NCBI RefSeq assembly: GCF_057098645.1
Contig: NZ_CM169472.1
DNA: 64,000 nt
Strand: one strand, 5' to 3'
A program made the position numbers. This document shows positions 42,101 to 45,100 of the stretch, in pieces (the first letter of the stretch is position 1; the number at the start of each line of letters is the position of its first letter).

Positions 42101-45100
42101 CAGCCTGACGTAGATTATCCAGTGACGATAATCGAGGCTGAGGGCTTTCCTAAACTCATACCCACGTCTGCGGTAGTTCTGAATCAGCCATTCGGCCTGT
42201 TCTTCAGTGCATGGGGCGTGCCGGAACCAGTCAGATTTGAATGCATGAGAACGCCGCCCGTGCCTGCTGGCAAAGACGGCTGAATTATCAGAATTGTGTA
42301 GTCTGGAATTTTGCGCCATCGGCTTTCTCCGGTGGCACAGTGTTACTCAACAGGGGTTCAGCCCTGCGCTGAATTGTAGATGAATTCACTAATCTTCAAA
42401 AGCAGAAAAACCAGCCTTAATCCCAGCTTCTTTCAGAGACGGCAACGATGTGACAAATTCATTTGCACGCAAAATAAAACCATCCGTCACAAGCCCATCC
42501 ACAAAATGAATTAACGCAGCTCCACTCTTCCTTTGTTGAGACTGTAAACATTTAATACGGCAGTGGCTGACAATAGCGCCCTTCTCAACGCGCACAGTAT
42601 AGAGGCCATCTTCACTAAAAATTTCACGTAATTCTTCGATTCTCATCAACAGAATCCTTCCAGATAAATAGCACTCCCCTGTTCGGGGTCCATCCCTCTT
42701 CTCCCTGCGCGCTACTTAAGTATTTTTGATTCTATTCCGGCGCCGTCCGGAACTTCAAACGCGTTGAAAATAAAAACAAAAACCCGCCGAAGCGGGTTAA
42801 GTGCGGGTGCGTTGAGGATGCCTGACACATCAGAGGTGGCGAGGGATTTCTCCCCCGCCTGGTCTCTTACTCCTCAGGTTCGTAAGCTGTGAAGACAGCG
42901 ACCTCCGTCTGGCCGGTTCGGAGTCGTACCTCGCAGAGGTCTTTCCTCGTTACCAGTGCCGTCACTATGACGGTTAAACAGATGACGATCAGGGCGATTA
43001 ACATCGCCTTTTGCTGCTTCATAGCCTGCTTCTCCTTGACCTTTCGGTCCGTAAGAGTCAATCTATATGTGACGAGCATATAGGGGCCTCACTTCGATTT
43101 ATAGTCGGGTGGGGCTTTTATCTATCTGCCGTTGGTGTTCATGCCCGAGGCAGATAGCCTCAAGCACCCGCAGCAATCCTACTTAACTCTGCCGTTACAG
43201 CAAACCGTTTTCGCCCGATATGGGAATTCCCATATCGGAATGAATTCAGTTCACCTGGCGAGGCTTAGCGTACAATTTTTTCCGTTTTGTGAGCTGCCCC
43301 TACATGCCGCTGGCGCGGCATCCGGAAAAAGAATCCACGTCCTGAAGGACGAGGATGTCAAGTGCCTTTCCTGGTCCAGCCATATTTTTTGAATGCAGGC
43401 GCCGCTTCATCGGTTTGTAGCCATTCTGCAAATCGACGGGTTTCATCATTTGCATCCTGACGTACTGTAATGTTCATATCACGCCATATCACGTAGTCTG
43501 GCGCTATTTCCACGACATCACCAATTTCTGGATTACTGGCTGCCCAGTCAGCCCAGGTTATCCAGACATCTGCTCCAGGCTGATTCTCAAGAGCCTTACG
43601 TGCAGTTCCGCTATTGGGCGCATATAAAATAATATTTTTTCGGATTGCGGCGACAGTTTCTATATTCCCTTTACGTCCGGCAATATCTTCCCAGACGCCA
43701 GTGCCTGATGTATTACTGGTACCACCACCATCATTAACAATTACGCCAATCCCAGGTCTGGTCAGGTCGTCAATACTCCGGATATTTTTAGGATTACCTT
43801 TCTTTACCAGTAAAATACTTTTTCGCAGATAAAGAGGCTGAATATCTTTTTCACTGAAGCTGTCTTTATGGTCCCGAATGATAGCCAGAGCAGATTGTTC
43901 TGATGCGCCAAACAAGATATCTGCATTTTTTTTGGCATCTTCATTCCATTTGTTCTGTGGGCCGTAATGAACGTTCACTATAATACCTGTTTTTTCGGCA
44001 TAAAGTTTGGCTGCATCAAGCAAGGCTGTATGCGGGCCACCAGGACCATACAGATTGATATCAGCATAAGCAGCAGAAGACAGGAATATTAAAAAACCTG
44101 CCATTATGTTCCTCATAAAAAACTCCTTTTATTGGTTATCATGAAATAAAGTTATAAACACTACAAATAATATATATTACATCCAGATAAACTTATCCGA
44201 CTTTACCTCGTGCATAGCTTGTTATTTAAAGTCAACAAAATAAGGAAAATTATACGCATATTGAAGAGTATAAACCTTACATGTTGATTACATTTTTGTA
44301 ATCAACATCCTGTTTGGAATAGCCAGCCTTTAATGGATAACTATTTCTGACAATGCAATGAGTATAATCAAGTCCATCTTCCACTGAGAATTAGAGGCGG
44401 CATGCTTTTTCCGGCTCTTGCCGGATATCCGTAATTGTCCATAATCTGCAGATTTATACCTTCTGCATGACCTGTCAGCGAAAATTTGTCCGGTGTTTCT
44501 ACGGGAATGACATCAAAGTTACACGCACTCGCGTTACCGTGTAGACCTACTTTCCTGCACTTGCAAGATCACAGTGGTGTAACCGTAACAGGAATTTATT
44601 CTCTGGACCGGCAGTAAATCCCTGAGTGGCGTGGTTCCCATATCAATTTCCCGCCAGGCAGCCTCCATTGCCAGCGTACAGGCTGGAGCCATGACCTGCC
44701 CTTTAAATCTGGCCCGACCATCCCACCGGACGTGTTCTTCTCCCCTGAACTTAGGTACAGTCATCTCCAGTGGCACAAAAGTGTCAGCGCCATAATTTTT
44801 GACCGTTATCGCGCTACGGATATTTTGTTGACTGGTGAAAATCACCCCGCAGAATCAGGCTTATTCCCTTAACCTGGGCTTTCATCCTGACCGCCGCCTC
44901 ACTACGACCAATCAGACTGCCGATGCATTTTACCTTCATTGTTAGTATCATGATTTCAGGCCTGCACCATCCGCTCATTGCCCGGACTTCCGACAAATCC
45001 CGGCAACCATATCCCGGTGCTTGTTCAGCTCCCGCAGCGCGGCGCAGACTCGCTCCCACTTCTGGACATGATTCTTCGCCCTACGCAGTTCGCGATTTGC

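Follow-up and report, generated by a model that had tools for sequence, protein, structure and literature searches.

Within contig NZ_CM169472.1 (assembly GCF_057098645.1), the stretch of 64,000 nt analysed here (the window) carries a prophage hok toxin gene with a perfect 24-bp palindrome upstream of it. Sequence comparison indicates that this palindrome is a detached copy of one allele of a dyad element housed in KilA-N genes, and that the dyad is maintained in those genes by selection on the nucleic acid. The neighbouring segment at 42774-43169 on the minus strand constitutes a type I toxin–antitoxin cassette of the hok/mok/sok kind, canonical and complete, a prophage paralogue that is already known and annotated, and we regard this overall account (a hok/mok/sok cassette and, separate from it, a detached copy of the KilA-N dyad) as probable. 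A first-pass annotation of the same DNA had described an orphan hok gene with the palindrome in its leader; what it found is mostly ordinary and partly wrong, and the palindrome that it flagged leads to a conserved element. The palindrome is as follows.

43215..43238, no strand: perfect 24-bp palindrome CCGATATGGGAATTCCCATATCGG, 12-bp arms, no spacer, centred on GGAATTCC, central EcoRI site

A dyad element in KilA-N genes

The palindrome was confirmed at the position first reported for it and is unique in the window: no second copy appears even when three mismatches are allowed (0 expected in 100 shuffles), while E. coli genomes carry from one to six copies. A sequencing or adapter artefact was considered, given the central EcoRI site and the very long perfect palindromes in some metagenome-assembled genomes (L129, L169); for the window it was rejected, since hundreds of complete genomes, obtained independently, have the identical site. 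The 22-mer core is present in at least 120 IMG/VR contigs, and among the matches listed there are 122 occurrences, 93 of them with a hok leader downstream (at a spacing of 46 nt in 90 and of 64 nt in three) and the other 29 in at least 13 unrelated flank contexts. A 20-mer gave 45 matches in GTDB contigs (one genome per species) where about 0.3 would be expected by chance, and approximately 26 of these lie within KilA-N genes of cyanobacteria, Bacteroidota, Bacillota, Chloroflexi, spirochaetes and proteobacteria, the hosts including Nostocales, Saprospiraceae, Brachyspira, Rhodobacterales and Xenorhabdus. The open reading frames (ORFs) that bear the palindrome encode KilA-N proteins (Pfam PF04383, E = 4e-27) and in them it encodes DMGIPIS at a fixed place, in the context ...TxxFLxELSxDMGIPISELIQxxKGGxxxxQGTWVHP.... 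Many of these proteins combine KilA-N with a BstA C-terminal domain (PADLOC BstA, 6e-21 to 2e-16). Membership of the palindrome in an unrelated repeat family, which the first-pass annotation had named as counting against its reading, is what was found: the palindrome belongs to a dispersed family, that of the KilA-N genes.

Over 22-26-mers the window palindrome is identical to KilA-N genes such as L004, L138 and L361, the dyad sequence associated with the L004-type E. coli protein, which strain 222 (NZ_CP020516) has for instance, being TCCGATATGGGAATTCCCATATCGGA. As it is intergenic and the window has no KilA-N gene, the window palindrome is best described as a detached copy. In KilA-N genes of Saprospiraceae/Lewinella (L140, L151, L162 and L164) an identical 20-bp palindrome occupies the same place in the domain in another reading frame, encoding ERYGNSHIA rather than DMGIPIS. 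Two observations on individual genomes may be added here. The perfect palindrome extends over 30, 36 or 44 bp around the same core in L129 (Tolypothrix), L169 (a Nomurabacteria metagenome-assembled genome) and L054, either genuinely or by assembly fold-back, and Okeania sp. KiyG1 (L142-L144) and Xenorhabdus beddingii (L148-L149) have two to three copies per genome with identical flanks, which suggests that these copies ride on a repeated element.

Several lines of evidence indicate that the dyad is under selection as nucleic acid and not only through the peptide. A degenerate scan for any coding of DMGIPIS returned about 115 sites (80 distinct flanks), and 92 of them retain both arms (GATATGGG and CCCATATC), the centre alone varying (AATT, GATT/AATC or GATC); in the KilA-N cases the proline codon is always CCC and the second isoleucine codon always the rare ATA. 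To avoid ascertainment bias, an unbiased sample of KilA-N genes was collected through the QGTWVHP motif, which lies about 60 nt downstream of the dyad. This gave 62 distinct new genes, 45 of which have G-x-P at the site, and in 40 of those 45 at least eight of the ten arm positions are Watson–Crick pairs about the centre GGA A|TT CC, compared with 0.35% for other centres in the same genes; in 41 genes the dyad centred on G-I-P is the best dyad within 300 nt. The arms vary among genes, with changes matched on both sides. The pairs of arms and the peptides that they encode are listed below.

DMGIPIS: arms GATATGGG / CCCATATC
DIGIPIS: arms GATATCGG / CCGATATC
DTGIPVS: arms GATACCGG / CCGGTATC
DVGIPTS: arms GATGTCGG / CCGACATC
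ETGIPVS: arms GAAACGGG / CCCGTTTC
VAGIPAT: arms GTTGCGGG / CCCGCAAC
IVGIPTI: arms ATTGTGGGG / CCCCACAAT

In an alignment of 42 KilA-N sequences the paired cells amount to 83.7% against 70.2% in shuffles (0/500), and covariation scores 0.387, where the shuffles give 0.168 (0/500) and slid controls 0.05-0.08. At one arm pair 22 sequences have UA and 19 have CG; at the adjoining pair 24 have GC and 17 have CG, and each pair has only one exception. The wobble base of the proline codon covaries with the third base of the preceding codon in 41 of the 42, and where threonine is encoded ACC goes with CCG and ACG with CCC, a purely synonymous covariation. The same constraint can be read at the protein level: among 96 protein-database homologues the residues flanking G-I-P obey a reverse-complement codon rule in 74 (positions −1/+1) and 78 (positions −2/+2), whereas 5000 shuffles gave means of 36 and 50 and maxima of 50 and 60; examples of residue pairs that obey it are M/I, I/I, T/V, V/T and A/A, together with D/S, E/S, V/T and S/D. 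Taken as sequence evidence, these results argue that the KilA-N dyad is maintained by selection on the nucleic acid. There is possibly also a second, shorter dyad over the E-L-(I/V)-Q codons 3′ of the main one (A3 alignment columns 33-44; GAATTAATTC, GAACTAGTTC), with possible covariation of TTA/ATT versus CTA/GTT; its counterpart in the window is TGAATTCA at 43241-43248.

The arms and the centre of the dyad bear on whether it acts as DNA or as RNA. Mismatches between the arms in the KilA-N genes show no excess of sense-strand G.U wobble (GT 13, AC 19, AA 31). The central octamer GGAATTCC is present in 25 of 41 genes, including GC-rich ones, and is usually self-complementary right up to the centre, which is not required of a hairpin loop; on both counts we lean, not decisively, towards a duplex-DNA element, such as a dimer binding site or a cruciform, rather than RNA. 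A search of Rfam gave no family match at the palindrome, either in the window or in a KilA-N gene (E<=1-10). As to the encoded protein, an AlphaFold2 model of the KilA-N domain (pLDDT, the predicted local distance difference test score, 92.8) has a helix at residues 47-60 with D59-M60 at its end, a turn formed by G61-I62-P63, a short helix from I64 to L67 and a β-hairpin wing, and its best matches in the PDB by Foldseek are Mbp1 (1bm8, 3e-4) and the PCG2–DNA complex (4ux5, 7e-3), both of them APSES proteins. In the model, then, the segment ..ELSxDMGIPISELIQ.. runs from the last part of helix A through the G-I-P turn into the beginning of helix B of an APSES-type winged helix-turn-helix. As G-I-P is placed in the turn, the dyad coincides with the DNA that encodes the helix-turn-helix of the DNA-binding domain.

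The window is not the only place in which the dyad lies apart from its home gene. A second allele, CGATATCGGAATTCCGATATCG, was found in 50 IMG/VR contigs, with 33 copies in KilA-N genes and 17 elsewhere, and for both alleles there are detached copies that encode D[MI]GIPIS in frame within the interdomain linkers or tails of DNA-metabolism proteins, namely a DnaG-type primase-D5 helicase, Prim-Pol-DUF3987, AAA_24, RecT, Rha, a ParB-like protein and an integrase (loci L414, L383, L385, L133, L058, L159, L384 and L403, mostly phage replication or recombination genes). Other copies are non-coding. About 25 enterobacterial phage contigs share a module, ACCATACAAGC-[CGATATGGGRATYCCCATATCG]-ACAGCCAG-GGCCTCTCCGGAGGCC-TTTTT, in which the dyad lies 9 nt before a bidirectional-looking terminator and downstream of a gene whose product ends in the C5-methylase-like GNAV motif GNAVPPPFAEALV (L186 around 1772 on the minus strand, L227, L250, L175, L220, L218 and L211 among them). 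In L010 the palindrome lies between a stop codon and a terminator. At L075 (7066-7087) and in Siccibacter colletis (L128) it lies between cro-like and cII-like genes, at the nutR/tR1 position, about 45 nt after the boxA-like CGCTCTTTAACAA and within a longer inverted repeat, GACGGTAA(A)TCGT...ACGATTACCGTC. As a control, the DNA encoding the QGTWVHP motif was in KilA-N-like ORFs for 104 of 105 distinct matches and thus almost never outside them.

The hok/mok/sok cassette and the place of the palindrome beside it

The features of the hok locus are given here in the order in which they are met on the minus strand, followed by the predicted antisense gene.

43239..43252, minus: 14-nt remnant GAACTGAATTCATT, the end of a 34-residue small membrane ORF (alignments and ORF translations; homology with relatives lacking paa begins here)
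43176..43204, minus: putative hok promoter, −35 TTTGCT at 43204..43199, 17-nt spacer, −10 TAGGAT at 43181..43176 (read relative to the predicted +1)
42774..43169, minus: predicted full-length hok mRNA, ~396 nt (5′ end by the Rfam RF01794 match, 3′ end by terminator and T run)
43158..43169, minus: tac element, the mRNA 5′ end GGGUGCUUGAGG (pairs with 42805-42817 in the minimum free energy and centroid folds)
42867..43079, minus: mok-like ORF, 70 residues, in frame with hok and extending it 5′-ward (ORF list)
42867..43022, minus: hok coding sequence, 51 residues, HokD allele with I33L (ORF list, Pfam and alignment)
42805..42817, minus: fbi element CCUCAACGCACCC (paired with the mRNA 5′ end in the predicted fold)
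42772..42798, minus: intrinsic terminator of the hok mRNA, AACCCGCTTCGGCGGGTT then TTTGTTTTTA (hairpin 42798..42781, then T run; terminator scan)
43036..43119, plus: predicted sok gene, −35 TTGACC at 43036-43041, −10 CAATCT at 43059-43064, RNA ~43071-43119 (homology with the hok/sok leader and reading of the sequence)

The identification of the toxin as HokD/RelF-like holds. The 51-residue Hok/Gef peptide matches HOK_GEF (PF01848, E = 1.4e-22, 79.4 bits against a cut-off of 22) and is identical to HokD of K-12 at 50 of 51 positions, the only change being I33L; the alignment, which could have revealed loss of the characteristic residues, shows that both cysteines and the transmembrane segment are retained. 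Identity to HokW of Sakai prophage 5 is 46/51, near-identical RefSeq and GenBank records label this ORF hokD or gef, and the mok-like ORF is identical at 57 of 70 positions to a VT2-Sakai coding sequence annotated as 'MokW-like host killing'. The Rfam model for sok (RF01794), which represents the hok-sense leader, is matched over its full length, positions 1-157 of 157, by the minus strand at 43169..43020 (95.6 bits, where the gathering threshold is 59; E = 1.3e-21), and as the match spans the whole model the 5′ end of the hok mRNA, GGGUGCUUGAGG, is placed at 43169. Closure of the mRNA by pairing of tac with fbi is the defining trait of hok mRNAs. The predicted 396-nt transcript folds with a minimum free energy of −163.5 kcal/mol (z = −7.7), nucleotides 1-12 pairing with CCUCAACGCACCC near the 3′ end in both the minimum free energy and the centroid structures. 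The gene is not the orphan that it was first called, since a mok ORF, a Sok-encoding leader, the tac/fbi pairing and a terminator were all found. Of the elements to be sought according to the first-pass annotation, mok, fbi and the Sok-encoding leader were located; the plus-strand promoter scan that it also suggested brought out no sok promoter.

The predicted Sok RNA ends in a hairpin and a U run (the fold of 43065-43124 on the plus strand is −22.8 kcal/mol, z = −4.25), and the segment AAAACGGTTTGC...GTTAAGTAG(G/A)AT around the putative hok promoter is kept across hok loci, hokW included. In the related locus of Sakai prophage 5 (Sp5) the sokW promoter has been demonstrated experimentally, as have the toxicity of HokW, an RNase III- and Hfq-dependent antitoxin activity of sokW and an involvement in phage release, and the primers YO-349, YO-350 and YO-351 of that study match the leader and 3′ untranslated region (UTR) of the window (PMC8621323). 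By homology with hok/sok of plasmid R1 and hokW-sokW of Sp5, the full-length hok mRNA of the window would be kept translationally inert by the 5′–3′ tac/fbi closure, and translation of Hok would be coupled to mok and blocked by the antisense Sok RNA. The part of the leader that encodes Sok is allelic (window 43085-43115 on the minus strand, compared with L420, L002 and L003): the window and L004 have a short form, CCCCACCCGACTATAAATCGAAGTGAGGCC, and hokW and most hokD-type loci have a segment about 20 nt longer with a different hairpin. An enterohaemorrhagic E. coli (EHEC) genome has several hok loci, and such allelic segments could keep them from cross-talk with one another. A match of the hok 3′ UTR and terminator (42777-42858, minus) to isrK in Rfam stays below the gathering threshold of 50 bits, at 24.9 bits (E = 0.013), and is probably driven by the terminator.

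Measured from the predicted +1 at 43169 the palindrome occupies −46 to −69, centred at −57.5, and ends 10 bp upstream of the putative −35. As the leader begins only at 43169, the palindrome lies outside it and upstream of the likely −35, and not within it as was first thought. Alignments of hok loci show that the conserved cassette starts at AAAACGGTTTGC, about −41, so that the palindrome is just beyond the boundary; in VT2-Sakai hokW and in hokD of E. coli B there is unrelated sequence in its place and the homology starts downstream of it. What does accompany the palindrome is an upstream module. Most relatives lacking paa have a hydrophobic 34-residue ORF (MSDDISLAMEGALAVIAVVGVYCLVVFLMDRLGN) whose stop codon is 9 nt before the palindrome, and in strain CFIAFB20120266 this ORF is followed by a variant palindrome with one substitution (CCGATATGGAAATTCCCATATCGG) and then by ibrAB-like genes, hok being absent. 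The same ORF stands directly upstream of the palindrome and hok in many lambdoid prophages (L002 at 4496-4600, L124 at 2560-2664, L423-L425). In the window paa has replaced the ORF except for its last 14 nt, which lie between paa and the palindrome. As the palindrome follows the 34-residue ORF with or without hok, comparison of these loci assigns it to the upstream module (ORF tail plus palindrome) with which it appears to have arrived, marking a mosaic junction and not a hok leader.

The surroundings are those of a PPompW/paa(adfO)-type lambdoid prophage of EHEC and enteropathogenic E. coli, in which the hok cassette belongs to the nin region and the genes follow one another as P - DUF1627 - paa - hok - rem - ydfU (DUF968) - rusA - Q. 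The two features next upstream are these.

43358..44116, minus: paa/adfO, AcfC-family adhesin, cargo gene upstream of hok (Pfam SBP_bac_11; RefSeq/GenBank annotation of near-identical records)
43338-43351, minus: terminator-like hairpin of paa (terminator scan)

It had been noted that relB-relE is missing upstream of hok and that a solute-binding protein gene sits there instead; this stands, the gene being the SBP_bac_11 member paa/adfO, and no relBE was found upstream of the window hok, where paa and the full leader occupy that side. Of 5426 complete E. coli genomes, 572 contain the hok-paa segment of 751 bp, the arrangement being annotated as hokD plus paa; PPompW phages have it as 'gef'. 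Between the terminator-like hairpin of paa and the palindrome, at 43296-43330, there is a REP-like inverted repeat, CCGGATGCCGCGCCAGCGGCATG.

Readings of the window copy

The first-pass annotation offered two roles for the palindrome, a hairpin of the hok mRNA like fbi or tac and a protein-binding operator. If transcribed the palindrome would indeed form a stable structure (the fold of 43195-43262 on the minus strand is −28.1 kcal/mol, z = −4.7), but it lies outside the predicted transcript, whose leader model starts at 43169; the true tac (43158-43169) and fbi (42805-42817) are elsewhere and pair with each other, and the palindrome is missing from the functional hokW-sokW and other hokD loci while occurring in many contexts without hok. 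A leader hairpin controlling hok translation is therefore very improbable. As an operator for a dimeric regulator of the hok promoter, a perfect dyad 10 bp from the putative −35 and centred at −57.5 would be a typical class-I-activator or upstream-repressor site, and the juxtaposition with hok is frequent, 46-bp spacing being found in 90 of the 93 hok-linked occurrences among the 122 IMG/VR occurrences listed. The fixed spacing, however, is explained by the shared ancestry of the loci, whose flanks are homologous. As hokW works without the palindrome (PMC8621323), the palindrome appears to be dispensable for hok/sok; moreover, some lineages have a decayed palindrome and an intact hok, and a variant with one substitution stands behind the same upstream ORF where ibrAB-like genes replace hok. 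We consider this role improbable too; should the palindrome bind a protein at all, the connection is most likely with KilA-N proteins and not with hok. An element acting at the 3′ end of RNA is unlikely, if somewhat less so: the hairpin could end the transcript of the 34-residue ORF or of paa and stabilise, process or terminate it, as the palindrome comes 9 nt after the stop codon of that ORF in relatives, is found 9 nt before a canonical terminator in the ~25 enterobacterial phage contigs and lies between stop codon and terminator in L010. Against this, the palindrome of the window has no U tract behind it and was not among the terminators called by the scan, paa has a terminator-like hairpin of its own, and in KilA-N genes the arms are without G.U bias and the central GGAATTCC is mostly self-complementary (25/41), unlike a hairpin loop. 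The more specific proposal of an intrinsic terminator was rejected, as there is no U tract (the downstream sequence is GCGAAAACGG) and the scan calls only 42798..42781 and 43351..43338.

There are two further readings. The palindrome may be a neutral relic, either the short remainder of a KilA-N gene or a passenger at a junction where phage modules have recombined. With its flank the palindrome reads DMGIPISE*IQF on the plus strand where KilA-N genes have DMGIPISELIQSF, in the related phage contig L004 a hok cassette of 95% identity stands next to an intact, divergently oriented KilA-N gene, homology breakpoints coincide with both edges of the palindrome, and decayed copies exist. The similarity to KilA-N genes, however, extends merely ~10-14 nt past the palindrome, and detached copies of two alleles recur in unrelated contexts with the whole dyad intact and the flanks lost, whereas the QGTWVHP control motif is almost never detached (104/105 in KilA-N-like ORFs). 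A relic is thus possible but doubtful. The other reading, which by analogy heads our ranking although only tentatively, is that the palindrome is a binding site for a KilA-N dimer or an aba-like decoy; the detached copies, that of the window included, would then act as extra or decoy KilA-N sites, conceptually like the DNA that confers self-immunity to BstA. For the window copy we rank this binding site or decoy before the neutral relic, and these before the RNA 3′ hairpin, the operator and, last, the leader hairpin.

It should be noted that a number of observations weigh against the account preferred here, that of a cassette and a detached KilA-N dyad. There is no KilA-N gene in the window (the best tblastn match, E = 0.02, is in a tail gene), and the closest E. 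coli KilA-N gene with this allele is present in 137 of 5426 genomes, against 731 with the hok-linked palindrome region. The juxtaposition of palindrome and hok occurs in 609-731 genomes with a gap of only 10 bp to the putative −35, so that an effect on hok transcription is possible. Several non-coding copies are directly before intrinsic terminators, which hints at a role at the RNA level. One arm has lost a single nucleotide in two of five sampled diverged alleles (PA11 and OkiPb01701), hok being intact, and such decayed copies upstream of hok fit a dispensable relic. On the side of the cassette, the hok +1, both promoters and Sok were placed by homology, the predicted sok −10 (CAATCT) is weak, and a consensus promoter scan called neither the predicted sok promoter nor the putative hok promoter.

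Known systems and the meaning of the dyad

The hok/sok system of plasmid R1, with its mRNA of ~396 nt, tac/fbi closure, mok ORF, antisense Sok and terminator, has the same architecture as the cassette in the window. It differs in being carried by a plasmid and not by a prophage; in the window hok and mok share one reading frame, as is the case for MokC and MokW, and the Sok segment is shorter. The closest experimentally studied relative is hokW-sokW of Sakai prophage 5/VT2-Sakai (Takada et al., 2021; PMC8621323), likewise a hok/mok/sok cassette in the nin region of a lambdoid prophage, with which the window shares the −35/−10 region and, letter for letter, the initial ~50 nt of the leader; unlike the window it has no palindrome, its Sok segment is ~20 nt longer and of other sequence, and the 3′ UTR and C-terminal residues differ. 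The hokD (relF) gene of the K-12 Qin prophage has rem and ydfU downstream, as in the window, but relBE replaces the leader with its mok, sok and tac; the homology ends 14 nt upstream of the ATG and relE follows, which makes K-12 hokD a truncated form and the window a complete cassette. The cassette, already known and annotated, changes nothing else, but this much it usefully shows.

For the dyad the comparisons are less direct. APSES and KilA-N are said, in the work of Iyer and colleagues in 2002, to be winged helix-turn-helix DNA-binding domains, and the fold of the proteins that host the dyad is the same as that of the APSES/KilA-N domains of Mbp1 and PCG2. In 1996 Clerget and Boccard reportedly found that Roi of phage HK022 binds a site inside its own gene; the HK022 ORF that we took for Roi is, on our reading of its sequence, of Rha/ANT type and not KilA-N, and so is a conceptual analogue only. 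Repetitive extragenic palindromic (REP) sequences and bacterial interspersed mosaic elements (BIMEs) are also short palindromes found at the 3′ ends of genes and near terminators, but the KilA-N dyad differs from them in its low copy number, its perfect symmetry, its home inside coding sequence and its occurrence across phyla. The nearest parallel is BstA and aba (Owen et al., 2021; PMC8585504), in which a phage protein with a KilA-N(-like) N-terminal domain has, overlapping its gene, a short element that acts as DNA, aba and protein forming cognate pairs. These cognate pairs parallel the allelic, covarying arms of the KilA-N dyad. The palindrome was nevertheless rejected as an aba itself: the aba of BTP1 is 63 bp at the start of the gene, with terminal CCCGCC direct repeats and no palindrome (PMC8585504), its sequence bears no resemblance, and BTP1 bstA is without the dyad in the N-terminal domain or an equivalent place. 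The literature searched, which did not cover subscription-only papers, contained no account of a conserved palindrome in the DNA encoding the KilA-N helix-turn-helix, and sequence strings matched unrelated primers only. The KilA-N dyad is thus apparently undescribed.

By analogy, one can go a step further and speculate that the KilA-N domain has this dyad as its own recognition site, coinciding with the DNA for the turn and the start of the recognition helix, and that detached copies, the one upstream of hok included, are 'self' tags or decoys, a proposal that we put forward with considerable reserve. If it were true, a single piece of DNA would be both reader and site, and the two would change in step; this would account for the covarying arms and for the residue pairs M/I, I/I, T/V, V/T and A/A. 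A phage or prophage could then escape, or be regulated by, abortive-infection effectors that combine KilA-N with the BstA C-terminal domain, and the dyad would be a palindromic, family-wide analogue of aba.

To our knowledge, KilA-N is among the commonest DNA-binding domains of phages and giant viruses, and its DNA targets are essentially unknown. The dyad and its free-standing phage copies provide a concrete candidate for such a target sequence and a testable link to abortive infection and self-immunity of the BstA type. If the constraint on the dyad is real, it would offer one of the few examples of amino-acid pairs in a DNA-binding motif being visibly dictated by a constraint on the nucleic acid.

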